NCBI RefSeq assembly: GCF_036677455.1
Contig: NZ_JAVBWL010000026.1
Location: 21,711-45,710, forward strand
Length of the DNA stretch: 24,000 nt
Source of the DNA: Methanoculleus sp.
GTDB lineage: Archaea > Halobacteriota > Methanomicrobia > Methanomicrobiales > Methanoculleaceae
Direction: 5' to 3'
Part shown: in pieces, positions 1-15,547 of the stretch
How the letters are laid out: every line of letters starts with the position of its first letter
Position numbering within the stretch: position 1 is the first letter of the stretch
The notes under the pieces: generated by a model
Databases searched by the model: none
Told to the model about the DNA's origin: nothing
The model's input: the letters and a program-made list of their open reading frames with translations, nothing else
Translations under genes and position numbers: made by a program

Positions 1-369
1 GAGGAGGGAGGGCTTCGGGATCATGAAGACGGCGTCCTGCATCTGCCGGGCGAAGAGTGTCTTCTCGCCGTTGTGGAGCGACTTGATAAAGGGAAAGACC
101 AGATCCCGGACGTGTTCGAGCATCTGCTCGGCGGGGTAGTGTTTCCAGCTCGACCACCGGCACTCCTCGTGCCCCGCGAATACCGACGTATACGCCACTC
201 CCCGCGCCCGTGCCCGGTTCTGCTCGACGGTATCCATATCCTCGAGGCGCTTCATGAAGATGAGGTAGGACATCTGCTCGATGGACTGGAGGGGGTTGGA
301 CATCCCGCCGCTCCAGAAGCGGTCCCAGAGGGTGTCGATCTTTGATTTGAGGTCGGGGGCGAGTTTCAT
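1..369 (-). CDS. hsdM: Type I restriction-modification DNA methyltransferase subunit M. Only the N-terminal 123 codons are present; the gene continues beyond the left edge.
   Basis: Absent from the ORF track because it has no stop codon inside the window. The reverse complement of 369..1 reads MKLAPDLKSKIDTLWDRFWSGGMSNPLQSIEQMSYLIFMKRLEDMDTVEQNRARARG..., which looks like an HsdM N-terminal domain. Its ATG (369-367) overlaps the hsdS stop (368-366) as ATGA. Confidence 0.8.
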   Translation of the reverse strand, partial: MKLAPDLKSKIDTLWDRFWSGGMSNPLQSIEQMSYLIFMKRLEDMDTVEQNRARARGVAYTSVFAGHEECRWSSWKHYPAEQMLEHVRDLVFPFIKSLHNGEKTLFARQMQDAVFMIPKPSLL

Positions 370-1559
370 GCGACTAATTCTCCGGTGAATGCGTTACTCA
401 TTAGAGATTCAAACAGCAGAGTGATTCTTTGTCTAGAGTAACTCTGTTTTTGCTTTAGCTCCTCAGCTCTATTTACAAACTCAGAAAATTCATGCTGTAA
501 TTCTAAAGGTGGAAGATAAACAGGGAAATTTTTTAGTTGCGTTGAATTTATGCTTGCGATGCCTGTAGTTTGTTTAGCTGATCTAAGAAAATACATTTTA
601 CCGTACATGCTTCCGGTAAGCATACTCAAGTATTCAGGGGTCAGAAGGTCTGAATTTACCCTTACCCGGAAGACATGATTCTGGTGGAGGCATAACGTTA
701 CTTCACCTTTCCAAACAGCACCCCTGCCTAGTTTATCCCGGTCTCCACCTTCTGTTAAGAGCACATCCCCGGGATGTAACGCATATTTGTCTACATCAGA
801 CTCCAACACCTCAATCTCCTTGATCTCAGTTAGATCTAAGTATCCATCCTGTACATTTGCCACACGGAGATAAGGGACCCAAATTGTCGCCTGATCATTA
901 AATTTTCTACCTTTTGTGACGCCCGAAACGATCTTTGAAACTTCTTCCAGTCGTTTAACTTTCCAGCCAAATGGATTCTCTAACGGATTGCCAAACAACT
1001 TAATGAACACGTTTTCAATAAGGTTCCACATCAGCGCATCCGCCTCTGCCCGAAGGCGCTGCGTTGCCTCTACCTTCTCAAGAATGGCGACGATTTTGCG
1101 CTGGGTTTTGAGAGGGGGGAGGGGTATTTCAATCGACTGTAGTTGCTTTGAGGAAAGATGCTTCACGGTGACGTGTGGAGTTTTGTCTTCAATTTCTTTA
1201 AGGATTTTAACTAGTGCTTTGTATAAGAAATAGGGATGCAATTCTTCTGATCTTATAACTAATTTACAAATTCGTTGATTGAGTAAGGCTGATTCTCCTT
1301 CCCATCGAATAATATTAAATTCGCCATCCATGCCAATGAGTAAATCATCTTTATATGTGAGGTATTTTTCTTCATATTCTCCATCAAAGAAAGTATCGGT
1401 GTAACTCCTTTTTAGATCTCTGATTCTAACTAATGGAGTGCCGACACCTTTATCGTTAAATTGCGTTGAGTCAAACGGAAACCCATAGAAGAAATCGACG
1501 TAACTTGACAATTTGACTAATTCCCACTCACGAGGTAACTTCTTTTTCTCCACTTTCAC
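366..1559 (-). CDS. hsdS: Type I restriction-modification specificity subunit S
   Basis: 397 aa with two variable target-recognition halves. Each half is followed by a conserved helical spacer (LPPLKTQRKIVAILEKVEATQRLRAEADAL and LPPLELQHEFSEFVNRAEELKQKQ), and the protein ends in NAFTGEL. The GTG start (1559-1557) directly abuts the hsdR stop (TGAGTG). The gene is visibly AT-rich compared with hsdR and hsdM. Confidence 0.9.
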   Translation of the reverse strand: MKVEKKKLPREWELVKLSSYVDFFYGFPFDSTQFNDKGVGTPLVRIRDLKRSYTDTFFDGEYEEKYLTYKDDLLIGMDGEFNIIRWEGESALLNQRICKLVIRSEELHPYFLYKALVKILKEIEDKTPHVTVKHLSSKQLQSIEIPLPPLKTQRKIVAILEKVEATQRLRAEADALMWNLIENVFIKLFGNPLENPFGWKVKRLEEVSKIVSGVTKGRKFNDQATIWVPYLRVANVQDGYLDLTEIKEIEVLESDVDKYALHPGDVLLTEGGDRDKLGRGAVWKGEVTLCLHQNHVFRVRVNSDLLTPEYLSMLTGSMYGKMYFLRSAKQTTGIASINSTQLKNFPVYLPPLELQHEFSEFVNRAEELKQKQSYSRQRITLLFESLMSNAFTGELVA

Positions 1560-4394
1560 TCACGCCTCCGCAAACAACTCCCGCTCCAGCCCCTGGCAGA
1601 TGCCGATAAATGCCTTCAGATCACCTTCATCGAACATCGGCACCGGCGCGGTGCTCCCGAAGTTCGTGAACGGAGCCAGGAAGAGATCGTCCATAACTAT
1701 GTGCTTCTTTCGCATAAAAACGGTCTGAATCGTCCGGATGAAGTGCAGTTGATCGGCAGAATAACTCTTGTTATTCTCGATCATGTAGGTCTGAAACGCT
1801 CCTTCGATCATCTTCTTCGGGTCCGGCGCCTCGTAGAGCCCGAAGAGCGACCGAATGAACGCCACGAGCGAGCCATACGGGTGACGCGGCGAGGTCTGCA
1901 ACATCTCCTCGGTGACGTTCACCCCGGCCTCCGCCAGAGCCTCTTCGAGACCGTGCAGGTCGGCTTCGGTGATCGGCTCGTCCCGAAGGATCTTCTGAAT
2001 GACCGGATTCTGGTCGGCCAGCTCCGTCACCCTTTTCTCGACTTTCTCCCGGAACGCCACCACGTACTCAGGCGCTTCCTCGTTAAACGTCCAGAGCGTG
2101 CGCTGCTCGATGATATCCCCCATGTCGATGACGATAGGTTCGTGCGACTCCTTTGAGAGGTACTGCATCAGCGGGGCAATATCTGCCACAAGCCCGGTAG
2201 CATCCTCAAACGAGAGACCCTTCCAGAACGCACGGGAGAGCACCTCGTCCAGCCGCTCCTCCTTCTCCTTCACGATGTTGAGCGTCCGGGGGAGGTGATC
2301 GACCATCTCCCCGATCTCCGGGGCCAGCCGCTCGATCTCCTTCTCGTTCCCCTCCAGGACCGCGAGCCCCAGCCGTTCCGCTTTGACCGTGAAGGACGCC
2401 TCCTTGAGGTTCACCCCGGTCTGGAAGCGCATGAGGGGCATGATCGTGCCCTTCAGGTACTCCAGCGGGTCGAGCCCGACGTTATCCCAGAGCTTCGGCG
2501 AGAGGGCTTTCGCGATCTCCCGCTCGTGCTCCCGGACGCTTACGGAGTCCATCGGGAGCGACCGGATATCCTCCTCCAGCCGCTGCCGGACGACCGTCGC
2601 CCGCTCCTCGTCGCCCTGCGCGAGGAGGCGCTCCAGCTGCTTCAGTCGGAGGAAGAAGACCCGGCTCGTGATGGCTTCGGTCGGCTCGTTCTTCACCCCT
2701 TCGGGGTTCATGTTCCAGTACTCGAAGTTGTTCCAGAAGTCGAAGACCTTGAAGTACTCCTTACGGCCATCCGGCAACCATTCCCGGTGTTTACACGCGG
2801 CATCCGACCGCGTCCCGCGCCCCAGCATCTGCCAGAACTTGATCTTCGAGAAGACCGGCTTTGCAAAGACCAGATTGCAGACCTCCGGCACATCGATGCC
2901 AGTATCGAGCATATCCACCGAGATTGCCACGCGGGGGAAGGACTCGTGTTCGAAGTCGTGGATGAGGGCGTCGGCGCGGGGGTCGTCCGAGACGATGATC
3001 CGTGCCAGCCGTCCTTTATACTCGGGATACAGGGCGTCGAACGCCTCGTGCAGCCGCCGGGCATGTTTCTTGGAGATCGCGAAGAAGATCGACTTTGCCG
3101 GAAGCGTCCCGGCCTGATCCATCTGGCACCCCTCCATGAACTCCCGCACGATCGCCTCAGACGTGCCTTTGATGGCGACCTTCTTCTCCAGCTCCGTCCC
3201 TTCGAAGTCGATCTCGTCTGGGTCGATGCCCTGCTCGATCAGCCGGTTGCGCTCGCTCTCCGTCAGGTCAGAGGGGCGGAGACCTTCGATCTGAAAGTGC
3301 GTCTGCGCTCCGAGAATACTTTTGCGGAAGTCGACCAGCACGCCATCCTTCACAGCCTCATCGTAGGAGTAGAGCGTGGTCGGCATGTGGTCGTCGCACT
3401 GGAAGAACCGGAAGGTGTCCCGGTCGACCAGCTCAGCGGGTGTCGCCGTCAGCCCGATCTGCATGGCGTCCAGGTACGTAAAGACGTCTCGCCACCTGTT
3501 GTAGATGCTCCGGTGCGCCTCGTCGGAGAAGATCAGGTCGAACTCCCCTGGAGAGATGAGGTACCGCCCATGCTCGTCCTTCTGTGTGTAGATCTCCTGG
3601 AATGTCTGGATCGTGGAGACGAAGAGGCGCTTCTCCTTGTTGTACCTGCCGTGCAGGATCTTGTCCTTCGCTTCGTGAGGGAAGAACTCCAGGAAACCCT
3701 TATTCCACGCCTGATCGCGGAGCGCTTTCCGGTCGGCGAGGAAGAGCACCTTCTGCGCCCGGTTCTCCTTGAGGAGGGTGTCGATGATCGCCATTGCCAC
3801 GCGGGTCTTCCCCGTGCCGGTCGCCATGACGATCAGCCCTTTACGGTGGCCCTTGTGGATATGCTCAAGCACGCGCTTGACGTTCTCGATGCTCTTTGAG
3901 CGGTCGACGATGCGGGTATTGACCTCGATTGGTTTCGTGGGATCGATCTTCTGGATCTGGAAACGAAGCCGCTCAAGGTCTTTCTGTGCGTAGAAGCCCT
4001 TCACAAGCCGGAGCGGGTAGCGCTCCCGGTCCCAGAACCATATCTCGTAGCCGTTCGAGAGGAAGATGAAGACGTCCCTCCCGGTCTGTTGTTTGATATC
4101 ATCGGCGTACTGCTCCGCCTGCTTCTGCCCGACGAGCGGGTCTTTCGAGGTGCGTTTGGCTTCGACGATGGCGAGCGGAGCGCCGAGGCTGTCGAGGAGA
4201 AGATAGTCGACGTACTTACTCTCCAAGTCGTTCTTCAGCGTCTCGGCTACGGTCTTGTAGGAGTGTGCGAGAAAGTCGGACTGTTTGGTGTCGACTTCGA
4301 GAATGACGGAGGCACGGTTCATGACGTCCCAGCCCTGCTCGGCAAGGTAGACGTCTATCTTCTCTTTCCGCGTCCGTAATTCGTTTAAGTCCAT
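1560..4394 (-). CDS. hsdR: Type I restriction enzyme subunit R (nuclease plus SF2 translocase)
   Basis: 944 aa. It has an N-terminal PD-(D/E)xK-like motif (VDYLLLD...IVEAKR), a Walker A motif ATGTGKT and a DEAH box (FSDEAH). A long helical C-terminal region resembles EcoEI-type HsdR. It lies directly upstream of hsdS/hsdM on the same strand. Confidence 0.9.
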   Translation of the reverse strand: MDLNELRTRKEKIDVYLAEQGWDVMNRASVILEVDTKQSDFLAHSYKTVAETLKNDLESKYVDYLLLDSLGAPLAIVEAKRTSKDPLVGQKQAEQYADDIKQQTGRDVFIFLSNGYEIWFWDRERYPLRLVKGFYAQKDLERLRFQIQKIDPTKPIEVNTRIVDRSKSIENVKRVLEHIHKGHRKGLIVMATGTGKTRVAMAIIDTLLKENRAQKVLFLADRKALRDQAWNKGFLEFFPHEAKDKILHGRYNKEKRLFVSTIQTFQEIYTQKDEHGRYLISPGEFDLIFSDEAHRSIYNRWRDVFTYLDAMQIGLTATPAELVDRDTFRFFQCDDHMPTTLYSYDEAVKDGVLVDFRKSILGAQTHFQIEGLRPSDLTESERNRLIEQGIDPDEIDFEGTELEKKVAIKGTSEAIVREFMEGCQMDQAGTLPAKSIFFAISKKHARRLHEAFDALYPEYKGRLARIIVSDDPRADALIHDFEHESFPRVAISVDMLDTGIDVPEVCNLVFAKPVFSKIKFWQMLGRGTRSDAACKHREWLPDGRKEYFKVFDFWNNFEYWNMNPEGVKNEPTEAITSRVFFLRLKQLERLLAQGDEERATVVRQRLEEDIRSLPMDSVSVREHEREIAKALSPKLWDNVGLDPLEYLKGTIMPLMRFQTGVNLKEASFTVKAERLGLAVLEGNEKEIERLAPEIGEMVDHLPRTLNIVKEKEERLDEVLSRAFWKGLSFEDATGLVADIAPLMQYLSKESHEPIVIDMGDIIEQRTLWTFNEEAPEYVVAFREKVEKRVTELADQNPVIQKILRDEPITEADLHGLEEALAEAGVNVTEEMLQTSPRHPYGSLVAFIRSLFGLYEAPDPKKMIEGAFQTYMIENNKSYSADQLHFIRTIQTVFMRKKHIVMDDLFLAPFTNFGSTAPVPMFDEGDLKAFIGICQGLERELFAEA

Positions 4395-4572
4395 ATTATT
4401 TCTCCACGCCGGGAAGAATAGGGGAATAACCGGCCCTATTCATTAGTTAATAAAAACAGGTGTGTAAATAAGGGTTGTGAAATCTTTGCGGCCGGTTGTG
4501 GCCGCAATTGACCTTTGTCAGAGAACAATTATGGTGGAGAAGAGAGTTTTGGCGATGCAATGCAGCGAGGAG

Positions 4573-4580
4573 AAAAAAAA
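4573..4580 (-). terminator. Oligo-T (T8) archaeal-type terminator after the 303-aa ORF
   Basis: The plus strand has A8 at 4573-4580. On the minus strand this reads TGA-AGTAA-TTTTTTTT, five nt after the stop codon at 4588-4586. Oligo-T runs are the known archaeal intrinsic termination signal. Confidence 0.5.
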
Positions 4581-4585
4581 TTACT

Positions 4586-5497
4586 TCACGATCCACCGTT
4601 TTCCTCAGTACTTTGGGGAGCGGTCGATACCATGTCACATAACCGTTCTAGCTCATCAAGCGACTTCATGATGCCCACCTCCACTAAGTATCGATAGAGA
4701 AGATAACAATGGAATGCATACAGATCTTGGAGGACTTCTCTAAATTCCTCTAATCTGTATGACTTACTTCCAAAAAACAACATATTCTTTTCCCCATCGT
4801 AATAGTAGTCGGCATGAGCAACCTTATTCCGGATAAAAGCGTCCTGCAACACACTGCATCGTCGCTTCTTGAGGAAACTCTGACTGTGGAGGTATTTTAT
4901 TAAATCAGCCCGGAATATCGTAGAGTCACTTCTGGCCAATCGGGTATACTTTTCGATGAAGGCTCTTGATATCGGGTCACTATCACATTTTATTTCAGCG
5001 ATTTTTAAGCATATATCTGTTAAAAAACTGAGAGTCAGCTCGTAGCAGGTACCGTATGCCCTTAGTGTTTGATCGACATCATACGCAATGGAGATATTGG
5101 TCTTTCTGCCCTGCGTGAAATGTTCTGCAACATTATAAAAATGCCAAATTTGTGGCATGTGCCTCCAAAAGTCATACTTAACCCCTTTTTTGGCTGTTAA
5201 CGCAAATAATTCAGATAACAATCTATCGATGAAATCCTTACAATCGGCATTTAGTCCCTCCCCCCTCTCTCTAAGAGAAGTCATTAGAGCATCTAATTGC
5301 ATATAGAGAGCCAAAACTAATGCAGTAAACTCGTTTTGATCTTTTGGGAATATTTCCTCAAACTCTTCTGTTGCGATATCACGCAATCCCCGAGGTATCT
5401 CAATATTCGCGCTATGCTCGATCTCAGCAAAAATCTGCTGAATCCTTTCTTCAGCAATAGGCTTGGTCGTTTTAAATACATCAGGGTCTTCTTCCAT
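4586..5497 (-). CDS. Uncharacterised 303-aa protein with helical-looking composition and a C-terminal Rx4H (HEPN-like) motif
   Basis: Long AT-rich ORF 36 nt downstream of mrr on the same strand. I recognise no family. The segment LQDAFIRNKVAHADYYYD contains R-N-K-V-A-H, which fits the Rx4-6H signature of HEPN RNases. There is no competing ORF of similar quality on the other strand. Confidence 0.7.
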   Translation of the reverse strand: MEEDPDVFKTTKPIAEERIQQIFAEIEHSANIEIPRGLRDIATEEFEEIFPKDQNEFTALVLALYMQLDALMTSLRERGEGLNADCKDFIDRLLSELFALTAKKGVKYDFWRHMPQIWHFYNVAEHFTQGRKTNISIAYDVDQTLRAYGTCYELTLSFLTDICLKIAEIKCDSDPISRAFIEKYTRLARSDSTIFRADLIKYLHSQSFLKKRRCSVLQDAFIRNKVAHADYYYDGEKNMLFFGSKSYRLEEFREVLQDLYAFHCYLLYRYLVEVGIMKSLDELERLCDMVSTAPQSTEENGGS

Positions 5498-5533
5498 CCT
5501 TATCTCCGCCTATCTGAATACTCACACCCTTCG

Positions 5534-6466
5534 CTACTCAAGATCTCCAAAATATTCTGGGTCGACTTTTTTAATTACATAACTCGCTGTTTCGGTCACG
5601 CCGACATTATAATCGATCATATACTGTGCTAACTGCTCACCGTCGATCAAGACAATTTTCTTCTCGATGATCTTCACGTACTCCTTTGCTTCCTGGCTAA
5701 ACTGCGACGTTGTGATGAAGACACCCTTCTTTGCCCTCTGTCCTTCCAGACTTCCCGCAAACGCCTGTACGACTGGCCTCCCTACCGATCCTTCCCATCG
5801 CTTTGCTTGGATGTATATCACGTCGAGACCTAGTCTATCTTCTTTGATTCTGCCATCTACGCCTCCATCTCCACTACGACCGATGGCTTCACCAGCATCC
5901 TCATGGGAGCCTCCATACCCCATTCTGACAAGCAAATCGACGACAATATCCTCAAAAATTGACGGATCGCAAGCCTTCAAACGTTCTAATATTTCTTGAG
6001 CCAGTTTTTGTCTTAGTTCAATATTTGCCGCATGCAAGACTTCTTCAGGGGTTAAAGAAGGGGATTTATTGATCTTGTCTTGAGCGTTCTTATTCCCGCC
6101 ATTCTGACTTGAAGCCCTCTTAAAGACCTCAAATTCAGGAAATTGCATCAAAAACTCGGTATTTATTGTGGGGGGCTTATTCCTGACAATACTGACCCCT
6201 CTCTGTGTAATCTTGTATCTCCCTCGTCCAGTAACCTCGACAAGCCCAGCCTTCGTAAGATACGTCCTTGCCCACCCAAACCGATTATCATATGTTCTCG
6301 ATCTTCCACTTGGCTGCAGAACCCGTCTCTCGTCGTCCGTTAAATGAAAGATTTTGTCTGCCAGAATATCTCTGTCATCTGCCATCAGATGCTCTTTGCC
6401 ATCCGCTGTGAGTTTGAGAAGAGGAAGCATAATTGATTCATAATCGGGTACAGACATGACCATCAC
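5534..6466 (-). CDS. mrr: Mrr-family type IV (modification-dependent) restriction endonuclease
   Basis: 310 aa. The N-terminal winged-helix Mrr_N-like region reads PDYESIMLPLLKLTADGKEH...RFGWARTYLTKAGL. The C-terminal Mrr catalytic core reads GDGGVDGRIKEDRLGLDVIYIQAKRW (D...QxK). Confidence 0.9.
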   Translation of the reverse strand: MMVMSVPDYESIMLPLLKLTADGKEHLMADDRDILADKIFHLTDDERRVLQPSGRSRTYDNRFGWARTYLTKAGLVEVTGRGRYKITQRGVSIVRNKPPTINTEFLMQFPEFEVFKRASSQNGGNKNAQDKINKSPSLTPEEVLHAANIELRQKLAQEILERLKACDPSIFEDIVVDLLVRMGYGGSHEDAGEAIGRSGDGGVDGRIKEDRLGLDVIYIQAKRWEGSVGRPVVQAFAGSLEGQRAKKGVFITTSQFSQEAKEYVKIIEKKIVLIDGEQLAQYMIDYNVGVTETASYVIKKVDPEYFGDLE

Positions 6467-6491
6467 TTAAAAGACCAGTTTAATCTTCACA

Positions 6492-6499
6492 TATATAAA
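6492..6499 (-). promoter_or_regulatory. Candidate archaeal TATA box for the mrr / 303-aa ORF transcription unit
   Basis: The reverse complement of 6492-6499 is TTTATATA, matching the archaeal TATA consensus TTTAWATA. It is centred about 30 nt upstream of the first mrr ATG (6466), which implies a leaderless or very short-leader mRNA. Confidence 0.45.
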
Positions 6500-6594
6500 A
6501 GAGGATATTCTGTATCCCCCTTTAAGGAAGTAGAGGCATTAAAAGGAAAAGAGGGATTATCTCAAGGGAGCAGATCATCCTAGCCAGTGGCCCT

Positions 6595-6819
6595 TCACAA
6601 CAGATCCTCAATCTCCTCTCGCTCTATCCCGGCTTGCTTGAGGATCTCCAGGAGCGTGCCAATTGGGAGGTCCCGCCCGTGTACCGGGACGACGACCCGG
6701 CGCTTCGTCTCCGGTTGATAGAAGATGTGGTGGCTCCCCTTCACACGGTCCAGCATGAACCCCTTCTTCTCCAGAATCCTGATAACTTTCTGCGCGGTGA
6801 GCGCCGGAAGTTTAGGCAT
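6595..6819 (-). CDS. hicA: HicA-family mRNA interferase toxin
   Basis: 74 aa from the internal ATG at 6819: MPKLPALTAQKVIRILEKKGFMLDRVKGSHHIFYQPETKRRVVVPVHGRDLPIGTLLEILKQAGI. This is a YcfA/HicA-like fold signature including the GSH motif. It overlaps the hicB stop by 8 nt. The longer ORF start at 6897 would run through hicB, so I rejected it. Confidence 0.85.
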   Translation of the reverse strand: MPKLPALTAQKVIRILEKKGFMLDRVKGSHHIFYQPETKRRVVVPVHGRDLPIGTLLEILKQAGIEREEIEDLL

Positions 6820-7045
6820 GTGCCTCGACGGTGAGGGTGTATTCCAGGAGCCCTTCCTCGGTAGGAATCTCCTCACCCTTCTCCTGGAGATGCTCAATGT
6901 AGAGCTCGATAGCCTCCCGTGCCATCGCTATCGCTTCATCGACAGTCTCCCCGAAGGTGACGCAGCCGGGAAGGGTCGGTACGGTGACGGTGTACCCACC
7001 TTCCGGCTCCTTCCGGAGGAGGATACGGTAGTTCAGGTTTCTCAT
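6812..7045 (-). CDS. hicB: HicB-family antitoxin (UPF0150-like)
   Basis: 77 aa from the ATG at 7045: MRNLNYRILLRKEPEGGYTVTVPTLPGCVTFGETVDEAIAMAREAIELYIEHLQEKGEEIP, a typical HicB N-terminal domain. The track ORF begins at a GTG 15 nt upstream (7060). Confidence 0.85.
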   Translation of the reverse strand: MRNLNYRILLRKEPEGGYTVTVPTLPGCVTFGETVDEAIAMAREAIELYIEHLQEKGEEIPTEEGLLEYTLTVEAHA

Positions 7046-7841
7046 TGCATCGCACCCCACGGATCACGCACATGCAAGGCCTATGTATGACATATGCATG
7101 ACAATGGTATTACATTACCCCATGATCTATAAAGAGTATCCATAAATACAATCCCTTTTTGAGAAGAACGCTGAAGAACCCTTCCCCTCACGTTCCACTC
7201 CCGGACCAGTTGGCTGTAGCACCCTTGAGACCATTCGGTGCTCATATTCCGGTTCTCTGGAGCATCGTGCCTCGAAGACCTGCAGTCTTCTCATGCTCCG
7301 CTTGCGCTCGCATGTCGCTCGCACCTCCCACACCTTCACCTGCGCCTCCCGCGAGCGGTAGACCGTCCTCGCCGGCCCCTTCGCCTCCTTAAGGCAGTTA
7401 TAGTAGAGGTAGAACCCTCCACTGCCTCGTCTCACCGACGATGTCAGTCGCTGGCCGGAAACGCGGGCTCGGGCTCGCCCTTTTCCACCGGTGGGCGATG
7501 AAGTCGGCAGGGTTGACTGCAGGCGGAGAATGACAGCCGGTTTCAGCATGTTTATAGCGGCTGCTGTCATCAAACAGCGTTGGGGTTGGGTTATTTTCAC
7601 CATTTGAACCGCAGTACATGACACTCTCGCCTTGAATGGCAGCAGGACGGGGGGCACAGGCATCCGCCCCGTCACCGAAAGCCTCGCTATCCATACACTC
7701 CGTTCTCCCAAAGTCCTCCAACCGGGCCGTAGGGGAGGGAAATCTCTCCCGATGAGTTAGACCGGCCCGCCAGAGAGATAGAGTTATCCAACCGGTCTCA
7801 ATCCAGTGAATTTTTTAACCACAAACGATCAATCCCCACCT

Positions 7842-8291
7842 ATGACCCACTGGATCGCCTCCTCCAACCGCGACAACGCGAAGATCCTCGATGCGAAGCA
7901 CATCTGGGGAGTACCAAAGCGGAACAAAACCCTCATGCAGCGGGTGAAGCCCGGCGATACCATCCTCGTCTATGTCAGACAGGAGAAGGAGGGCGATACC
8001 ATCCTCCCCTCCGCGATCACCGGCGCCTACGAGGTCATCGCTGAGCCCTACGAGGACCCCTCCCGCCTCTTCGTCACCCCGCCGCAGATGGGCGACGAGG
8101 TATTCCCATACCGGATGAAGGTCCGGCCAATCAGGGTCTTCGCCGAACCCCTGGAGTTCAAGCCGCTGATTGGGGATCTCAGATTCATCACGAACAAGAC
8201 GATGTGGTCCGGCCACCTCCGCGTCGCCATGCGTGAGATCCCTGAGGAAGACTACCGGTTCATCCTCAGGCGGGCCGGGGCGGAGGCCTGA
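7842..8291 (+). CDS. EVE / PUA-like domain protein (stand-alone)
   Basis: MTHWIASSNRDNAKILDAKHIWGVPKRNKTLMQRVKPGDTILVYVRQE...ITGAYEVIAEPYEDPS...FPYRMKVRPIRVF matches the EVE-domain pattern as I recall it (W..., WGV, N..lmq.vKpGD.i..Y, G..ev...y.D). The track ORF starts at GTG 7806; the ATG at 7842 seems more likely. Confidence 0.65.
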   Translation: MTHWIASSNRDNAKILDAKHIWGVPKRNKTLMQRVKPGDTILVYVRQEKEGDTILPSAITGAYEVIAEPYEDPSRLFVTPPQMGDEVFPYRMKVRPIRVFAEPLEFKPLIGDLRFITNKTMWSGHLRVAMREIPEEDYRFILRRAGAEA

Positions 8292-8534
8292 ACCCATGCC
8301 CGGGTGAAGACCCCGGCTTGAAGGCCGGGGATGAATTGCACCCCCAGATCCGTTCACTTTCACCCCGCACGGCCATTCTTTATGCCCGGGAGAGCCCAAT
8401 ATGCCTGTAGAGCCGGTTGGGGCACACCCGGCTCTATGCTTGCGGAGATCAGGACCGCTACACCGCCAACCCTGGCTGTGCACGTCCGGTCAACGAACCA
8501 GGAATCCCCCGGGCTAGCCCGGGGAGAGTGTCAA

Positions 8535-8621
8535 GTAGTGTATTCAGATGTTCGGAGCTCGACTTTGAACAGATCGTCCCGGCTCCGAACATCTATCCCC
8601 CATCGGGTGGCGGCCGGGCCG
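8535..8621. repeat. Copy A of a hairpin-containing direct repeat
   Basis: GTAGTGTATTCAG-ATGTTCGGAGC(8548-8558)-23 nt-GCTCCGAACAT(8582-8592)-CTATCCCCCATCGGGTGGCGGCCGGGCCG. The arms form a perfect 11-bp inverted repeat. By manual alignment the copy is roughly 85-90 percent identical to 10515-10527 plus 10592-10668. Confidence 0.8.
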
Positions 8622-8767
8622 TTGGGAGAAGGCGTTTCTGCCATCCTGATGGATATGGACGAGGAATGCATGAATTATGGATTGCCATAGAAGTTCTGGG
8701 GATCACAGAAGAGAAAGCCCGGCGTTCGGCAGGGTCTCCACAATATCGTACGGGTAAGGGCGGAACT

Positions 8768-9835
8768 ATGAGCGGAGATGAGAAGAAACTGATACGGAAC
8801 AGCACGGTTGAATTTTTGATATTTACCTCGGCAGCCGGTGAAGACTCAATCGAGGTCAGGTACGAGGACGAAACGATCTGGCTAAGCCAGAAGATGATGG
8901 CGACGCTCTTCGATGTGACTGTTCCAACAATAAACGTACACCTGAAAAACATCTACGAAAGCGGCGAGTTGACTCGTGATGCAACTATTAGAAAATATCT
9001 AACAGTTCAAATCGAGGGTGATCGTGAAGTCTCACGGACCCTTGACTACTACAACCTTGATGCCACAATCTCGGTTGGATACCGCGTCAATTCCCGAAGA
9101 GCCACCCAGTTCCGTCAGTGGGCGACTCAGGTGCTAACAGAATTTGCAATTAAAGGATATGTACTTGACAAAAAGCGGATGGAGAACGGTACGTTCCTCG
9201 GGGAAGATTACTTCGAGCGGCTGCTGGCAGAAATCCGGGAGATACGGCTGAGTGAGAGACGATTCTACCAGAAGATCACCGACATATATGCTACAAGCCT
9301 CGACTACAGCAGGAATGCACCAACAACACGTGAGTTTTTCGCAAACGTTCAGAACAAATTACATTTCGCGATACATGGAAATACTGCGGCTGAACTGATA
9401 ATGGCGCGTGCCGACAGCAGAAAGAAGCATATGGGCCTTAGCACCTGGGAAAAAGCCCCTGACGGGAAGATACTCAAAACCGACGTATCGGTTGCGAAAA
9501 ACTATCTGAACGCAACAGAACTTGAATCGCTCGGAAGAATCGTCAACGCCTGGCTTGACCTTGCCGAAGAGCGTGCCAAAAGAAAGATCCCGATGACTAT
9601 GGAGGATTGGGCAAAACGCCTTGACCGGTTCCTTGAGTTCGATGACCGTAAGCTGCTCGAAGACCGTGGAAAGGTCACAAAAGAGATGGCAAAAGAGTTC
9701 GCAGAGAGTGAATTTGAGAAGTACCGGGTTGTTCAGGACAGATTTTTTGAGAGCGATTTCGACCGGATGCTAAAGGAGACCGCCCCGCCCGAGGAAGAGG
9801 ATCGGGATAACAAAAACAGACTACTGGAGACCTGA
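8768..9835 (+). CDS. RhuM-family (virulence protein RhuM-like) protein
   Basis: 355 aa from the ATG at 8768: MSGDEKKLIRNSTVEFLIFTSAAGEDSIEVRYEDETIWLSQKMMATLFDVTVPTINVHLKNIYESGEL...ISVGYRVNSRRATQFRQWATQVL...ERRFYQKITDIYATSLDY. This pattern is characteristic of the RhuM family. The track ORF start (TTG 8417) reads through the repeat and GC-rich hairpins, so I rejected it. Confidence 0.85.
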   Translation: MSGDEKKLIRNSTVEFLIFTSAAGEDSIEVRYEDETIWLSQKMMATLFDVTVPTINVHLKNIYESGELTRDATIRKYLTVQIEGDREVSRTLDYYNLDATISVGYRVNSRRATQFRQWATQVLTEFAIKGYVLDKKRMENGTFLGEDYFERLLAEIREIRLSERRFYQKITDIYATSLDYSRNAPTTREFFANVQNKLHFAIHGNTAAELIMARADSRKKHMGLSTWEKAPDGKILKTDVSVAKNYLNATELESLGRIVNAWLDLAEERAKRKIPMTMEDWAKRLDRFLEFDDRKLLEDRGKVTKEMAKEFAESEFEKYRVVQDRFFESDFDRMLKETAPPEEEDRDNKNRLLET

Positions 9836-10176
9836 AATAAATCATCTCCCGTGGTGGGCGGCACCAGACAGGAGGAATACTTGATGGGCTGTATCCGGAG
9901 TGCCTGCTCTCGGAAATTAATGTCCGCAATATTGCCGGCGATCTGCTTATACCCCGTTATCTGCCGGCGTTTCCGTACTTGATGGGTACTTGATCCCCGC
10001 CCCTGAGATCCCCTGCATTCCGGTTACGCCGGGGAGGCGACGATCAGGCGGATCGTCATATCGGAAGATCCGTTCGCGTTCTTCGAGACCTTCGACGACG
10101 CGGTCTTCTCACCCTCATCTCGCCCATCATCGACCCTGCACTCGCGTCGCCGCCCGAGGTCAGGAACATCGTCGGC

Positions 10177-10404
10177 ATGGACGACTTCCAGACCGAGATC
10201 TCGCTCTCGCGGCTCGTCGTCGCGCTCAAGATGGAGCGGGTTGAGTACGAGCCCGAGCAGTTCCCGGGCCTGATCTACCGGGGCGGTGCGGGGACCGCCC
10301 TCGTCTTCTCATCGGGGAAGGTGATCCTCGCCGGGTTCAAAGACCCGGGCTCGATGGAGGCGTTCGCATCCGGGCTGAAGGCGAAGATCAAGAACGCTGC
10401 GTAG
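10177..10404 (+). pseudogene. tbp: Single-repeat TATA-box-binding protein fragment (C-terminal TBP repeat only)
   Basis: The sequence ...VEYEPEQFPGLIYRGGAGTALVFSSGKVILAGFKDPGSMEAFASGLKAKI carries the TBP repeat core EYEPEQFPGL.YR....L.F.SGK....G.K. TBP-like sequence (PEVRNIVG) continues in frame upstream of the only ATG, back to a TGA at 9991-9993 with no alternative start. The first TBP repeat is not recognisable in any frame. Confidence 0.7.
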
Positions 10405-10514
10405 TTCCTGCGAAGAGGACATCCACCGCCCATATGCGCAGCCTCTCGCCGGAACTCACGGGATTCTGCCGGACGGCGCGGCACCACTCTTGCTCTACAC
10501 CACTCGCGCTCTAC

Positions 10515-10668
10515 GTAATGTATCCAAATGTTCGGAGTTCCGCGATCAAATGTTCGGAGTTCCCCGGCAAATGTTCGGAGCTCGCGACCAAATATTCGGA
10601 CCTCGACTTCGAACAAATCGTCCCAGCTCCGAACATTTCATCCCTCATCGGGCGGCGTGCCCGGCCCG
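10515..10668. repeat. Copy B of the hairpin repeat, expanded by a phased iteron-like array
   Basis: Four direct units of A(T/A)GTTCGGA(G/C)(C/T)TC start at 10528, 10550, 10571 and 10592, spaced 22, 21 and 21 bp apart. An inverted copy GCTCCGAACAT follows at 10626-10636. The flanks match copy A. Confidence 0.8.
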
Positions 10669-10674
10669 GTGCGG

Positions 10675-11103
10675 TCACCCGGAGCCTTCAGCGAGCAGGG
10701 CATGATACCCGGCCTGGACAAAATGGCGGTCTGCGGTCAGGGCATCGGAGATCTCCCGCTCCTTCATGACCGCAAGGGAGATGCAATCCGTGAGACTCCA
10801 CGCTTTATCGAGCCTTTGCTCGTAAATATCCCATCCCCTCAACCACAGGGCGGGATCGACAAACACGATCTCCACCCGGGGTGACGATTCAAGGCGGCGG
10901 CGGAATGCGATAACGGACGGTTTGAATGCGGGGTTTGCGAGAGCGTTGAACGTCTCGGTGAGCACGGAAGAGGTGGTGACGAGAGAGGATCCGGATTCCA
11001 TCCGGCGCGCCTAGAGCGTATCGGCGGTTTTGTGGAGGTGGTCACGCTTGTTCAGCAGCGCAATCCAGCATCCCGTATCAACAAAACAGCGATCATTGCC
11101 CAT
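10675..11103 (-). pseudogene. vapC: PIN-domain VapC toxin interrupted by an in-frame TAG
   Basis: A single frame from the ATG at 11103 reads MGNDRCFVDTGCWIALLNKRDHLHKTADTL-TAG(11013-11011)-ARRMESGSSLVTTSSVLTET...SLTDCISLAVMKEREISDALTADRHFVQAGY. All four PIN acidic positions (D9, E, D, D) are still present. The ATG overlaps the end of vapB by 11 nt. Confidence 0.8.
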
Positions 11104-11335
11104 GAGTATCCCGCTTTGGCGTTCCATACAGGTAGTGATCGTGCTCTGCTGCGAGGTCGCTGATATGGGTGTCTACGGCAAGCGACGCTATATCGAAGGC
11201 CGGATCGGTGGTTGCTTCGGAGTTCTCCGGGGAGAGTTGTATGGTAATTGTATATTTCTTCCCTGCCTCAAGGTCGACAGGCCCGGAAGGTCGGAAGACC
11301 GTTCCATCAAAGAGAACTTTCAGCGTCTTTGTCAT
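11093..11335 (-). CDS. vapB: VapB-type antitoxin (DUF104/AF2212-like N-terminus)
   Basis: MTKTLKVLFDGTVFRPSGPVDLEAGKKYTITIQL...DLAAEHDHYLYGTPKRD. The N-terminal beta-rich 'G.f.P...v.L.eG' module and the HDhYLYG tail are typical of PIN-associated antitoxins. It sits immediately upstream of, and overlaps, vapC. An alternative start lies at 11347. Confidence 0.7.
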   Translation of the reverse strand: MTKTLKVLFDGTVFRPSGPVDLEAGKKYTITIQLSPENSEATTDPAFDIASLAVDTHISDLAAEHDHYLYGTPKRDTHGQ

Positions 11336-11549
11336 CCGGAAAACCACCCCTGAATTCGATGACCATCATGGTCTTTGTGAAATAATAATGATTGCGGGTG
11401 CGTCTGCACCGGATCGCCCCTGCCAGGCTCGACAGCGGCATAAGCGAGAAGGCCCCTCCGCAGGGATGAGCGGCGCCCACCTCCATCTTCGCGGATCCGA
11501 GAGGTGGGATATCGTCCTGGTAGTCGAGGGTGCCACGCGGGGCCGTCAT
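11307..11549 (-). CDS. Short HEPN (DUF86-like) toxin partner of the MNT, possibly degenerate
   Basis: 80 aa. Its ATG overlaps the MNT stop as ATGA (11549-11546), the classic MNT-HEPN arrangement. It contains LAGAIRCRRTRNHYYF, an RxxxxHxY motif resembling the DUF86 RNxxxHxY motif. It is about 30-40 aa shorter than typical DUF86 proteins, and its 3' end overlaps the vapB start. Confidence 0.45.
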   Translation of the reverse strand: MTAPRGTLDYQDDIPPLGSAKMEVGAAHPCGGAFSLMPLSSLAGAIRCRRTRNHYYFTKTMMVIEFRGGFPDDKDAESSL

Positions 11550-11863
11550 ACGTAGATAACCTCGTTTGAGATACGGCGACCAATATGGGGCTTGAGCGCG
11601 CTCTTTTCGACAAGATCAACCCATCTATCGAGAATCTCGGACAGGTACCGCTCAAGCCTGAGAAACCCGAAGATCCCCGGCACCTCGGAGAATTCGACCA
11701 GGATATCCACATCGCTTCCCTCGTGCTCCTCACCACGCCGGCACGAGCCGAAGATGCCGATGGACCCGACGTGATAGGCCTCCGCCAGGTACGCCTTGTT
11801 CCTCCGGAGAATGCCGATGATTCTCGCGCACTCCCCGCCGGGCTCGCAGGTGACGGTATCCAT
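11546..11863 (-). CDS. Minimal nucleotidyltransferase (MNT) antitoxin
   Basis: 105 aa containing IGIFGSCRRGEEHEGSDVDILVEF, the GSxxRGExxxxSDxDxLV signature of pol-beta-type nucleotidyltransferases. Confidence 0.85.
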   Translation of the reverse strand: MDTVTCEPGGECARIIGILRRNKAYLAEAYHVGSIGIFGSCRRGEEHEGSDVDILVEFSEVPGIFGFLRLERYLSEILDRWVDLVEKSALKPHIGRRISNEVIYV

Positions 11864-11970
11864 TCCTGATCGGGATATGCGCCTTCCCCTCTAGTATAGA
11901 TATCCCCGGGTACGCCGGTTCATGGGGCGGGGTTCGGGCGTTCACCCCGGGACTTCGACGGTGAACCTGT

Positions 11971-12007
11971 ATTGTGCAACATTGTAAATACAACAAACAC
12001 TTACAAT
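11971..12007 (+). promoter_or_regulatory. Candidate operator/promoter of relBE-1
   Basis: ATTGT occurs at 11971 and 11981. A 7-bp inverted repeat, ATTGTAA (11981-11987) and TTACAAT (12001-12007), ends 7 nt before the relB-1 ATG. The A/T-rich TAAATACA segment between the arms could serve as the TATA element. Confidence 0.35.
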
Positions 12008-12013
12008 ACTGTC

Positions 12014-12217
12014 ATGGCTGCAACCAAGAGGATTCCCGTCTCGGAGGGGGTATGGGCGGAGATCTCCGAGCTGAAACGTCCCGGCCAGACCTTCGACGAC
12101 CTCCTCTCACAGATGGCCGAGCAGGAGAAAAAGCGCCGGTTCATCGAGGATATGGACCGCATCGAAGCGGAGGGGGATTTCGTGGAGTTGGATTTTGACG
12201 TTCCGGATACTGATTAA
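12014..12217 (+). CDS. relB: RelB-like antitoxin, copy 1
   Basis: 67 aa from the ATG at 12014: MAATKRIPVSEGVWAEISELKRPGQTFDDLLSQMAEQEKKRRFIEDMDRIEAEGDFVELD. It is paralogous to 12665-12889 and overlaps the downstream RelE gene by 23 nt. Confidence 0.7.
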   Translation: MAATKRIPVSEGVWAEISELKRPGQTFDDLLSQMAEQEKKRRFIEDMDRIEAEGDFVELDFDVPDTD

Positions 12218-12485
12218 CCGCAAGGCCCTTGAGAGTATCCGGAGCCTCAACGAAAAGAGCCGGCGGATAGTCATGGAGAACCTGAAAACCCTTCAGGAGG
12301 ACCCGTTCCCCGGCAGCGGAAGCGACAAGGAGCGCCTGCATGTGCACGGGCGCGAAGATACCTATAGACTTCATATCGGCCGGACGTTCACCGCCTTCTA
12401 CCGCATTCATGAACCCGAAAAGGAAGTTCATGTCCTTGCCGTGATGACAATCGGGCAGGCGCACAAGCGGTATGGATGGTTCTGA
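12195..12485 (+). CDS. relE: RelE/ParE-superfamily toxin (archaeal RelE type), copy 1
   Basis: 96 aa from a TTG start: TFRILINRKALESIRSLNEKSRRIVMENLKTLQEDPFPG...YRLHIGRTFTAFYRIHEPEKEVHVLAVMTIGQAHKRY. The pattern 'L...P.......kl......yRlriG.yR.iY.i......v.vl.i..R..aY' is typical of RelE. Confidence 0.8.
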   Translation: MTFRILINRKALESIRSLNEKSRRIVMENLKTLQEDPFPGSGSDKERLHVHGREDTYRLHIGRTFTAFYRIHEPEKEVHVLAVMTIGQAHKRYGWF

Positions 12486-12558
12486 TGGTCTCTGAGCAGG
12501 TACCGTTTCATCTCCGGTCTCGCTCGTCCCGCAGGTTCCTGGCCCGGCACGAATCATC

Positions 12559-12564
12559 TTTTTT
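12559..12564 (+). terminator. Oligo-T run downstream of relE-1
   Basis: T6 at 12559-12564, about 75 nt after the relE-1 stop and before the relBE-2 promoter region. Confidence 0.3.
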
Positions 12565-12608
12565 CCGGCAGTTTCCCAGATCCAATACAGCACCCGGGTG
12601 ATCATATG

Positions 12609-12641
12609 GCACATTGTGGCAAATGTGCACAAGTATAAATA
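12609..12641 (+). promoter_or_regulatory. Candidate operator plus TATA box of relBE-2
   Basis: A perfect inverted repeat, GCACATT (12609-12615) and AATGTGC (12622-12628), is followed by TATAAATA (12634-12641). The TATA element is centred about 27 nt upstream of the relB-2 ATG (12665), consistent with a leaderless transcript. Confidence 0.45.
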
Positions 12642-12664
12642 TCACGCAGACCGAGAATACAGGT

Positions 12665-12889
12665 ATGTCTTCCAGCTCGAGTGGCAATCAAACCAAGCGT
12701 ATTCCCGTGAAAGAGCCCACCTGGAGGGACCTGCACAACCTCAAGGAAGCCGGGCAGAGTTACGATGAACTACTTAGCCAGATGATCCGGCGCGAGCAGG
12801 ATTACCGCGACTGGCGGATGATCGCCGAGATTGATGAGACCGGCGAGTTCGTAGCCTTCGACCCGGACGATATCCTGCAGGACGACTGA
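12665..12889 (+). CDS. relB: RelB-like antitoxin, copy 2
   Basis: 74 aa from the ATG at 12665: MSSSSSGNQTKRIPVKEPTWRDLHNLKEAGQSYDELLSQMIRREQDYRDWRMIAEIDETGEFVAFD. It aligns with copy 1 (KRIPV.E..W..l..lK..GQ..D.LLSQM...E....f......e..G.FV..D). Confidence 0.7.
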   Translation: MSSSSSGNQTKRIPVKEPTWRDLHNLKEAGQSYDELLSQMIRREQDYRDWRMIAEIDETGEFVAFDPDDILQDD

Positions 12890-12910
12890 CGCGCCGGGGA
12901 GCAGGAGAGC

Positions 12911-13192
12911 GTGTTCACTATTGTCATCGAGCGGAGAGCACGGGAGTTCGTAAAGGGGCTCCCCCCAAAAACCCGGCGCATCATCGTCGAAAAGATCCTG
13001 GAACTCAAGGAAGACCCGTTTCCGGGAGGAAACAAGGCAAAACTCGAGTACCCCCACCCTCCTGCAGTCTATCGCCTGCATATCGGCAGGTCCTTCACAG
13101 TATTTTATGTCATCGAGGATAAGGAGAAGATCGTCAAGATCGAGAAGATCGTGACGATCGAGAAGGCCCATAAAGAGTATTCCCACAGGTAA
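12911..13192 (+). CDS. relE: RelE/ParE-superfamily toxin, copy 2
   Basis: 93 aa from a GTG start: FTIVIERRAREFVKGLPPKTRRIIVEKILELKEDPFPGGNKAKL...VYRLHIGRSFTVFYVIEDKEKIVKIEKIVTIEKAHKEY. It is a clear paralog of 12195-12485. Confidence 0.8.
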   Translation: MFTIVIERRAREFVKGLPPKTRRIIVEKILELKEDPFPGGNKAKLEYPHPPAVYRLHIGRSFTVFYVIEDKEKIVKIEKIVTIEKAHKEYSHR

Positions 13193-13204
13193 AGAGGGCG
13201 AACC

Positions 13205-13855
13205 ATGCAGATGCATAAGGAGATCCTCGCCGCCTTCCCCGGCCTCTCGGTTGCGGAGGGTGATATCGGACCGCTCTCGATTCAGGAGAGGACCCCGCCC
13301 CTGGAGGCCTTGAGAGACGAGATCGTCCGCTCGGTACGAGAACAGTATACGCTTGAGCAGGTCAAAGATGAACCTCTCTTCAGGGCGTACAGGGACTTCT
13401 TCTGGAGGGTGGGCGTCGATCCGACCAAAACGCGGCCCGCCTCGGAAGCGCTGGTGAGAAGGATCCTGGCCGGGAAGATGCTCCCGACGATCAACACCGC
13501 GGTGGATGCCTACAACCTGGCCTCGGTCCGGACAGGCATACCCATTGCTGCTTTCGATGCCGATACCCTGGGCGGTGATCTCTCTATGCGGTTTGCAGAG
13601 GAGGGTGAAGCGTTCCTCGGCATCGGGATGGCGAAACCCGCCCTGCTCCAGAAGAACCAGGTTATCCTGACCGATGAAGACGCGATCGTCGCTGTCTATC
13701 CCTACCGGGACTCCGATGCGACAAAGATCACCCTCACCACAACGATGGTACACATTGTGGCGTGCGGCGTGCCGGGGGTTGAACGAGAGAAGGTGTACTC
13801 GACATACGAACTGGCTGCCGCATACCTGCAGGAATACGCTTCAGGTATTCGGTGA
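13205..13855 (+). CDS. Stand-alone B3/B4 (PheRS beta-subunit-like tRNA-binding) domain protein
   Basis: 216 aa. The segment YRDFFWRVGVDPTKTRPASEALVRRILAGKMLPTINTAVDAYNLASVRTGIPIAAFDADTL matches the B3_4 domain core as I recall it. Confidence 0.7.
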   Translation: MQMHKEILAAFPGLSVAEGDIGPLSIQERTPPLEALRDEIVRSVREQYTLEQVKDEPLFRAYRDFFWRVGVDPTKTRPASEALVRRILAGKMLPTINTAVDAYNLASVRTGIPIAAFDADTLGGDLSMRFAEEGEAFLGIGMAKPALLQKNQVILTDEDAIVAVYPYRDSDATKITLTTTMVHIVACGVPGVEREKVYSTYELAAAYLQEYASGIR

Positions 13856-13959
13856 ATCTTCGACCACCATCCATTACCCGGCAACCAGGATAACTAAAGA
13901 AGCGGCCGGAGGTCGACGTGCAGAAGCCAAACCGGAATAGCGCGGGCGGTGCTCCCCCC

Positions 13960-14358: not shown

Positions 14359-14671
14359 GATCTCCCGTATGATCGCGGCAGGGCAAGAAGGTTCTCGTTT
14401 TGGTCCGTCGCAGGGCGAAACGGACGCGACGCGAGCTGTGTGCATACTCTGCCGCACTCTGGGATCTTAATACTATCTAACAGTTACAAACTAACCGGTA
14501 GTTATAATATAACCATAGGATATACCCTCTGGTGAGACTACCTTCAGGCAACCGGGAGTCTCCCGGCCGGGGGAGGGATGGATCGGATGAAGACTCAACG
14601 GAGAGAATGGGAATCCCATGGGAACATGTATGGAAGGGAAAAACTCGGGACCACGGGAATCGGGGGCTATC

Positions 14672-15523: not shown

Positions 15524-15547
15524 ACCGAAATGAAGGCGGTGAAAGCG

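Follow-up and report, generated by a model that had tools for sequence, protein, structure and literature searches.

What is a gene of no recognised family doing directly behind a restriction endonuclease gene, upstream of a type I restriction-modification (R-M) operon, in a methanogenic archaeon? The question is raised by 24,000 nucleotides (nt) of Methanoculleus sp. (assembly GCF_036677455.1, contig NZ_JAVBWL010000026.1, positions 21,711 to 45,710), a stretch that we call the window. An earlier note, made from the sequence alone, had described here an AT-rich pair on one strand, consisting of mrr (6466-5534) and, 36 nt away, an open reading frame (ORF) for a 303-amino-acid (aa) protein (5497-4586) with an Rx4H, HEPN-like motif near its C-terminus, and had proposed that the two might form a two-component defence module. 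All these coordinates were confirmed. Judged from sequence comparison, the 303-aa protein (ORF303) is a member of a real, unnamed family of ca. 300 aa, mostly archaeal, and we read it, tentatively, as a latent ribonuclease (RNase) linked to restriction. The features that this answer needs from the start are the following.

4586-5497, minus strand: orf303, coding for a 303-aa all-alpha protein with a HEPN-like C-terminal region (WP_332449732.1, "hypothetical protein," Methanoculleus sp.)

5534-6466, minus strand: mrr, coding for an intact type IV modification-dependent restriction endonuclease (Pfam and PADLOC)

4814-4831, minus strand: codons R223-N-K-V-A-H228 (DAFIRNKVAHADYYYD), the Rx4H motif and candidate catalytic site, with R223 at 4829-4831 and H228 at 4814-4816 (alignment A2, see below)

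5039-5041, minus strand: codon of E153, a near-invariant acidic residue (E in 28/29 sequences of A2) in the long helix 137-170

The earlier note could not place the 303-aa protein in any family, and the same held for our searches. ORF303, 28 relatives, and further members found in genomes gave no match in Pfam, NCBIfam, PHROGs, or PADLOC, and Pfam was silent for each of the 29 aligned members, so that current defence-finding pipelines cannot see the family. A word-indexed search retrieved only four relatives (54 to 92% identity). With HMMER, a scan of 1.84 billion cluster representatives gave 43 matches at E ≤ 1e-3 and 14 at E ≤ 1e-30, nearly all of them 280 to 320 aa long, and those members that carry an organism name are almost all archaeal. 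When 185,579 species genomes were scanned with a back-translated motif and the candidates checked against the family hidden Markov model (HMM), six clear members emerged in named genomes, all archaeal (Methanolobus, a second Methanoculleus, Thermococcus, Woesearchaeota, Nanoarchaeota, and Nanopusillaceae), as well as a distant, partial relative in a Clostridium provirus. No match was obtained in plasmid and phage collections (tblastn) or in a scan of IMG/VR proteins.

At the fringe of the family we noted a 266-aa relative (L030, 1283-2080) on the IMG/VR contig UViG_2713897211_000002 and a truncated relative in a Clostridium rectalis provirus (L021/L031, 1721-2119). Both share a module equivalent to ORF303 residues 190-288 (RNKIGHGDIYYD), and an Asn apparently takes the place of E153 (AALNFTLFF), as compared by eye in a stretch that lies outside the HMM alignment. 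A 213-aa protein from Woesearchaeota (L022, 2182-2820), whose N-terminus is non-helical, has a hairpin-like stretch behind IRNKYIHGNLYYDGG. This protein did not score with the ORF303 family HMM and is either a chance pattern match or a bare motif module set in another architecture.

Conservation was counted in an alignment (A2) of 29 family sequences reaching 17% identity. The suspicion in the earlier note that the Rx4H motif is meaningful was borne out, since R223 and H228 (29/29 each) are the sole invariant columns, within a pattern h-R-[N/D]-K-x-[A/S]-H. At position 224, 21 sequences have N, 7 have D, and one has R (N or D in 28/29), and position 227 is A, S, or G in 27/29. Upstream, the near-invariant Glu (E153) is followed four residues later, at position 157, by K or R in 14/29, so the form Ex3[KR] is half conserved. 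Downstream of the motif, D234 is kept in 27/29, [E/D]251 in 24/29, and G243 in 19/29. In HEPN domains, helix 3 ends in an Rx4-6H motif that runs on into the loop before helix 4, the R is followed by a polar residue (N, D, or H), and helix 2 contributes an acidic residue, typically within an Ex3[KR] pattern (PMC3710099). The family has the conserved Rx4-6H in R223 and H228, the polar residue behind the R, and, in E153, an acidic residue in the preceding helix. At the level of sequence, R223 and H228 together with E153 are the signature of the metal-independent HEPN endoribonucleases, which suggests RNase activity.

An AlphaFold2 (AF2) model of ORF303 built on A2 was confident (predicted local distance difference test [pLDDT] 89.5, predicted template modelling score [pTM] 0.86). 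The predicted N-terminal region is helical (helices 6-30, 36-49, 54-79, and 84-100) and is followed by helices 107-130, 137-170 (the one that carries E153), 175-189, and 196-205. The next helix, 221-227, is short; it stops at the motif, one residue before H228, and gives way to coil, which places the motif at a helix end and loop start, as expected of a HEPN protein. The C-terminal part consists of strands 231-234, 239-242, and 245-248 and of helices 249-274 and 276-292. Helical inserts are frequent between HEPN helices 2 and 3, and in Csx1 a beta-hairpin directly follows the Rx4-6H (PMC3710099). On the model, ORF303 might thus have a HEPN layout with two inserts, a helical one between H1-H2 and the motif-bearing H3 and a hairpin between H3 and H4. 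Two other assignments were considered and dropped: for a PLD/HKD motif there is no Lys and the protein is all-alpha, and for GIY-YIG or HNH the order of the elements is wrong and supporting matches were absent.

Genomic contexts of the family members were counted at the level of lineages (n = 15) and are listed here with the handles of the loci.

Context a (the window, L010, L025-27, L001-6, L008, and L009): mrr upstream on the same strand at a gap of 24 to 37 nt, hsdR or a remnant of it downstream

Context b (L007): immediately behind a type III mod-res pair, split by IS66, with an hsdR fragment downstream and without mrr

Context c (Methanolobus, L023): divergent from an orthologous hsdR (68% nt identity), without mrr

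Context d (L014): 50 nt past hsdS, with a Fic gene opposite

Context e (L013): adjoining divergent hsdM-hsdS and an EVE remnant, the gene itself having an internal stop

Context f (L033): directly after the 3' end of hsdM

Context g (L036, ORF 27% identical): tail-to-tail with a frameshifted Mrr gene (product 52% identical to that of the window) and beside an MmeI-like enzyme

Context h (L037): a Type ISP enzyme 2.7 kb away

Context i (Thermococcus, L015): a DEAD/ResIII helicase on one side and, at a distance of 1.5 kb, an Eco57I-like methylase on the other

Context j (P0037): part of an integrase/Rep_1 element that also encodes a helicase-DUF559 protein

Contexts k to o (Methanoculleus L017, P0007, and Woese-, Nano-, and Nanopusillaceae archaea): neighbours that are housekeeping genes or unknown

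Restriction genes lay within 3 kb in 9/15 contexts and were immediate neighbours in 7/15, and they belonged to types I, III, IIG/ISP, and IV. A Mrr neighbour was found in two independent lineages only, namely, the narrow clade of the window and the distant L036. The partner shared by the family is restriction systems in general, most often type I, and not Mrr. Homologues are enriched, then, beside restriction genes of several kinds. The context-a loci share ancestry, because the 5' remnant of hsdR in L001 is 86% identical to the window.

Wherever it was measured, the GC content of the family gene was below that of its locus or neighbours, the difference ranging from only ca. 1 point in L020 up to 31 points; in L017, for instance, it is 0.34 against 0.66 beside PolD. 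This argues for repeated horizontal arrival, even beside ordinary-looking neighbours. Several loci are decaying: the family gene of L007 (7521-10014) is split by an IS66 transposase gene, that of L013 (3630-4523) has an in-frame stop near the N-terminus, and in L036 (4873-5771) the Mrr gene beside the family gene is frameshifted. Such decay is typical of toxic or defence genes.

Some of these loci showed features of their own. P0004 is a C-terminal fragment of the L007 family gene, and its JGI name, "integrase," is an annotation artefact. In a metagenome-assembled genome of Nanoarchaeota (L019, 4725-6514), the family gene (GC 0.30) is preceded by an unknown gene for 262 aa (GC 0.32), and the two make up an AT-rich unit, the flanking genes being at 0.45 to 0.47; the 262-aa partner had no match in Pfam or PADLOC. 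The AT-rich islet of Methanoculleus L017 pairs the family gene with a YdjM-like membrane hydrolase. In L001-L006 (P0002 contigs), the sister locus of the window, the type I operon is mostly lost, with a 100-aa HSDR_N fragment left, and an IS630-type transposase, a CoiA-like nuclease, a type III R-M system, and Kiwa (KwaA/KwaB) have been gained around the cassette. The downstream synteny (QRPTase, PNP_UDP_1, and amidohydrolase) indicates the same chromosomal site as in Methanoculleus marisnigri JR1. Just beyond the hsdR remnant of L001 lies an AT-rich gene (13489-14238, GC 0.38) for a 249-aa protein that carries LRNELVHY and matches the Pfam family HEPN_RiboL-PSP below threshold (E = 0.003), and the island may thus contain two HEPN-like genes. 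A relationship between this RiboL-PSP-like protein and the ORF303 family was considered and dropped, as hhalign, a test of low power here, showed no similarity.

Within the window, the pair occupies a cassette with signals of its own.

4495-6593, minus strand: AT-rich mrr-orf303 cassette in a variable slot, with hicAB on one side and hsdR on the other (from blastn against JR1)

6492-6499, minus strand: TTTATATA, an archaeal TATA-box-like element and putative promoter, ca. 30 nt 5' of the mrr start codons (GTG 6466 / ATG 6463)

5498-5533, minus strand: mrr/orf303 intergenic spacer of 36 nt, with a purine-rich GGCGGAG (5504-5510) before the orf303 ATG

4573-4580, minus strand: T8 run, a candidate archaeal oligo-T terminator, beginning 5 nt past the orf303 stop

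The first gene is plainly a Mrr gene. Its product has 310 aa counted from the GTG, and 309 aa in public gene calls, which start at the ATG one codon on. It combines a Mrr_N winged-helix domain (7e-27, positions 1-86/87) with a Mrr_cat domain of the PD-(D/E)xK type (2e-36, 1-115/115), in which the D...QxK residues are visible as GVDG...IQAKRW, and it matches PADLOC mREase_IV over its full length (9e-92). Its identity amounts to 79% with the Mrr of L001 and to 52% with the one that adjoins the distant family member in L036.

Both sequence signals are where the earlier note placed them, and each is unique. TTTATATA occurs as a single copy in the 24-kb window (0.06 expected), as does the T8 run (0.27 expected), and these sole copies bracket mrr and orf303. 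Ahead of the orf303 ATG, the sequence reads as a GGAG-type ribosome-binding stretch (5504-5510), and the spacing between the two genes is 36 to 37 nt also in L001 and L008 and 24 nt in L009. We infer that mrr and orf303 are co-transcribed. As hsdR has an A/T-rich box of its own at 4447-4456, within sequence common to JR1, which is devoid of the cassette, the bracketed pair would be a separate transcription unit, as had been suggested.

The AT-richness of the pair relative to hsdR was likewise confirmed. GC is 0.39 to 0.45 inside the cassette and ca. 0.60 in the flanks; by gene, it is 0.412 in orf303 and 0.454 in mrr, against 0.595 in hsdR and 0.58 in hicA, and the stretch from 10000 to 24000 is at 0.599. 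Low GC is not peculiar to the pair, however, since hsdS is equally AT-rich (0.407), although hsdR and hsdM are native in composition; its AT-richness is consistent with the swapping of target-recognition domains. Another low-GC patch (0.49) was seen at 22501-23000.

The borders of the cassette were set by comparison with M. marisnigri JR1 (L028), whose chromosome agrees with the window in its hsdR-hsdS-hsdM operon and in its hicA/hicB genes. Positions 1533-4494 are 88% identical to JR1 (blastn), and homology returns at 6594, with hicA/hicB. The stretch between these breakpoints is absent from JR1, which defines the cassette as 4495-6593. The ca. 100 nt upstream of hsdR (4395-4494) are common to both genomes. 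A search of the insertion for direct or inverted repeats at its flanks and for a tRNA gene was negative. Sequence composition and comparison support a discrete, operon-like cassette that was probably acquired horizontally, and this much of the two-component module of the earlier note holds; the specific pairing with Mrr is not family-wide. In JR1 the slot (L028, 5404-7575, CP000562) is filled instead by a 723-aa ORF on the opposite strand, without match in Pfam and PADLOC, which is a candidate for an alternative cargo of the same hotspot.

The remaining features make up, with the cassette, a defence island of ca. 10 kb in the order hsdM, hsdS, hsdR, mrr-orf303, hicAB, EVE-domain gene, and rhuM.

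1-372, minus strand: 5' part of hsdM, which continues beyond the window (translation MKLAPDLKSKIDTLWDRFWSGG...; positions 1-403 match the JR1 hsdM region by blastn)

366-1559, minus strand: hsdS, type I specificity subunit (Pfam Methylase_S; PADLOC Specificity_I, 2e-121)

1560-4394, minus strand: hsdR, native type I restriction subunit directly downstream of the cassette (Pfam HSDR_N, ResIII, and EcoEI_R_C; PADLOC)

6595-6819/6897, minus strand: hicA, upstream of the cassette

6812-7060, minus strand: hicB, upstream of the cassette

7806-8291, plus strand: stand-alone EVE-domain gene (Pfam)

8417-9835, plus strand: rhuM, with the RhuM domain at residues 189-441 of the longest ORF

The operon downstream of the cassette has all three genes of a type I R-M system (hsdR, hsdS, and hsdM). 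HsdR is WP_332449731.1 (Methanoculleus sp.), and its 90% cluster spans Methanoculleus species, including M. marisnigri JR1. Because the RhuM domain covers only residues 189-441 of the longest ORF, the true start of rhuM is probably later.

How, then, should ORF303 be read? The family moves horizontally and lodges preferentially beside several types of restriction genes, and on this ground the reading that we prefer, without yet leaning on it heavily, is that of a restriction-linked latent RNase after the logic of PrrC and Abi2, with Mrr as a local but not obligatory partner. To the observed gene structure, cassette boundaries, family conservation, and gene contexts, this reading adds an RNase activity that would be kept latent, a trigger that would release it, a contact or coupling with Mrr or HsdR, and an outcome that would be abortive. 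ORF303 would be a second-line, abortive-infection-type effector on the model of PrrC/EcoprrI and Abi2; R223 and H228 at the end of the short helix, backed by E153 in the preceding long helix, would form its candidate active site, and the N-terminal helical region (ca. residues 1-130) might be a regulatory or docking part. Several results weigh against it. Among the ca. 35 family members scanned, neither HEPN nor any other profile matched, so similarity to an established HEPN family was not found at the profile level. Searched with Foldseek, the deep model (pLDDT 89.5) had no neighbour in the PDB (best E 0.2) or in BFVD (best E 0.1), and no HEPN protein was among its top 50; like those of a shallow model (pLDDT 72.8) in the PDB, its matches were only of the generic long-helix kind. 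One candidate relative, 4nqf_A, was lost as the profile was broadened (E 0.009 with 5 sequences, 0.13 with 7, none with 9 and 29) and was treated as a chance match for that reason; the RNIAVH motif of SO_3166 is not in 4nqf. The motif-bearing helix is short and is followed by a three-stranded meander, which is atypical for a canonical HEPN domain. In 6/15 contexts, among them those of DPANN archaea, Methanoculleus L017, and P0007, there are no defence genes, and JR1 has kept its type I operon without the cassette. Of the HEPN-like reading in the earlier note, the part that concerns the motif holds, and the HEPN fold itself was not confirmed by Foldseek or by the profile searches. The HEPN assignment accordingly draws on motif, secondary structure, and genomic context and not on demonstrated homology.

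The silence of the fold and profile searches, for a model so confident, would also suit a different enzyme, in which the R/H/E/D site belongs to a new fold or to a degenerate beta-beta-alpha nuclease (strands 231-248 and helix 249-274). The best-conserved block is indeed the motif with the beta-meander and the helix (D234, G243, and [E/D]251), and distant bacterial prophage relatives share this same block. Yet it is in HEPN proteins that h-R-[N/D]-x-x-[A/S]-H is combined with a Glu in an earlier helix, Csx1 has been described with a hairpin behind its motif, and profiles and structures of His-Me, HNH, and GIY-YIG nucleases were not matched either. Moreover, Foldseek is weak on all-alpha domains within longer helical proteins, so its silence carries little weight, and we consider a different enzyme rather improbable. 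The absence of defence genes from some contexts, together with the type I operon that JR1 keeps without the cassette, speaks for what we regard as the main rival of a restriction-linked RNase, namely, a stand-alone toxin, of Abi type or a selfish addiction gene, for which defence islands are permissive landing sites, with no link to Mrr or R-M and with the mrr-orf303 operon as a local accident of recent common descent. The tandem is indeed limited to one clade of shared ancestry (54 to 92% identity), and partner genes vary between lineages. Against this stand several independent lineages in which the gene lies directly downstream, on the same strand and at a short gap, of mrr, res, hsdS, or hsdM, as well as the Mrr adjacency that recurs in another orientation at 27% ORF identity (L036). 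A cognate antitoxin-like small gene is not consistently present either, and on balance a stand-alone toxin seems somewhat unlikely to us.

Activated Mrr enzymes can be toxic, and the tight operonic spacing of 36 nt is conserved, both of which would suit a non-catalytic regulator, immunity factor, or adaptor for Mrr, a possibility that the earlier note had raised. Most family members are, however, without Mrr nearby, which makes a dedicated regulator or immunity factor for Mrr unlikely; an invariant Arg and His with a near-invariant Glu are the pattern of a catalytic site and not of a binding surface, and profile scans detected no helix-turn-helix (HTH) or other DNA-binding domain in the ORF303 family. 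Taken together, we hold such a role to be quite improbable. Lower still we place the suggestion that the family is primarily an archaeal housekeeping enzyme of RNA processing, with incidental R-M-linked copies. The neighbours in DPANN archaea and in one Methanoculleus genome are S-adenosylmethionine synthetase, an aminoacyl-tRNA synthetase, ribosomal protein L22, and PolD, as that suggestion would have it, but the family is very sparsely distributed (43 clusters among 1.84 billion representatives), the gene is missing at this locus in M. marisnigri JR1, its composition is foreign even beside PolD, and pseudogenised copies exist, all of which makes it very improbable. A bolder extension of the restriction-linked RNase would take the ORF303 family as a new, largely archaeal effector class, with its R/H/E active site in a fold that has no solved relative. 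The adjacent restriction enzyme (Mrr here; elsewhere HsdR, Res, or IIG) would license it physically, and its RNase would fire when restriction is engaged or blocked, an independent archaeal counterpart of PrrC. We think this extension unlikely as it stands.

Known systems offer several points of comparison for a restriction-linked RNase. An R-M linkage has been described for at least 16 HEPN clades, in some cases together with RhuM or Fic/Doc toxins (PMC3710099), and the proposed idea of defence genes embedded in other systems (10.1101/2024.01.29.577857) matches the contexts of ORF303. PrrC/EcoprrI and RloC, HEPN-type anticodon nucleases of type I R-M loci, resemble it most in logic: in both cases a gene for a putative Rx4-6H RNase lies in or beside restriction operons, and in both a latent RNase is proposed to back up the restriction enzyme. 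Neighbourhoods of PrrC and RloC contain RhuM or Fic/Doc (PMC3710099), as the ORF303 family has RhuM in the window and Fic in L014. However, PrrC and RloC have an N-terminal ABC-type ATPase, where ORF303 has four N-terminal helices in which no Walker motif or P-loop was found. Since no library gave an ATPase or P-loop domain, ORF303 is not a member of PrrC/RloC. It also lacks sequence similarity to PrrC, its family is mostly archaeal, whereas PrrC and RloC are listed as bacterial, and its partners include type III, IIG/ISP, and Mrr enzymes, beyond the type I of PrrC. Abi2/AbiD/AbiF (PF07751), a HEPN group "embedded in R-M operons" (PMC3710099, Table 1), has in common with ORF303 the length of ca. 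300 aa, the all-alpha make-up, a C-terminal RNxxAH-type motif, and the R-M linkage; unlike it, ORF303 has a beta-meander after the motif and an archaeal host range, and none of the 29 members matched Pfam Abi_2 even at E ≤ 1.

With Csm6 the likeness is confined to the motif: when a profile of the C-terminal module was searched against the PDB, the sole match was 6tug, at its catalytic segment LRNKVAHN, with an E value of 5.4, which is not significant alone. Csx1 has the beta-hairpin right after Rx4-6H, as in the ORF303 model. In contrast to both, ORF303 has no CARF domain, no CRISPR context, and no Foldseek fold match. HEPN-MNT systems (HepT/MntA) need an adjacent minimal nucleotidyltransferase and a HEPN protein of ca. 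120 to 150 aa, whereas ORF303 has ca. 300 aa and a nucleotidyltransferase neighbour was found in none of the 15 contexts. The pairing of a type IV enzyme with a HEPN effector has precedent in the CoCoNuT systems, which combine, in one operon, a McrBC-type type IV component and predicted HEPN RNases and, like mrr-orf303, often lie beside type I R-M (PMC11090510). The window differs in its single-chain Mrr in place of McrBC and in having no coiled-coil, winged HTH, or helicase components, and the ORF303 family, unlike CoCoNuT, is not tied to type IV enzymes. Mrr itself and its adjacency to hsdR are ordinary, as mrr directly adjoins the type I hsdR also in the immigration control region of E. coli K-12. 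There, nothing stands between the two genes and mrr is divergent; in the window, mrr brings a second gene and reads toward hsdR.

What is new here is the ORF303 family itself, unnamed, largely archaeal, and without a structural neighbour. It adjoins restriction genes in methanogens, Thermococcus, and uncultured archaea, and archaeal antiviral defence is far less charted than bacterial. Descriptions of R-M-linked HEPN clades have until now presented them as mainly bacterial (PMC3710099). If the fold should prove not to be HEPN, the family would represent a new nuclease-like fold with a convergent R-x4-H site. If ORF303 is a latent RNase, the family would provide a new profile for the annotation of archaeal defence islands and a compact, easily tested two-gene cassette, and the model of a restriction enzyme accompanied by a suicide RNase would extend to archaea and to Mrr.

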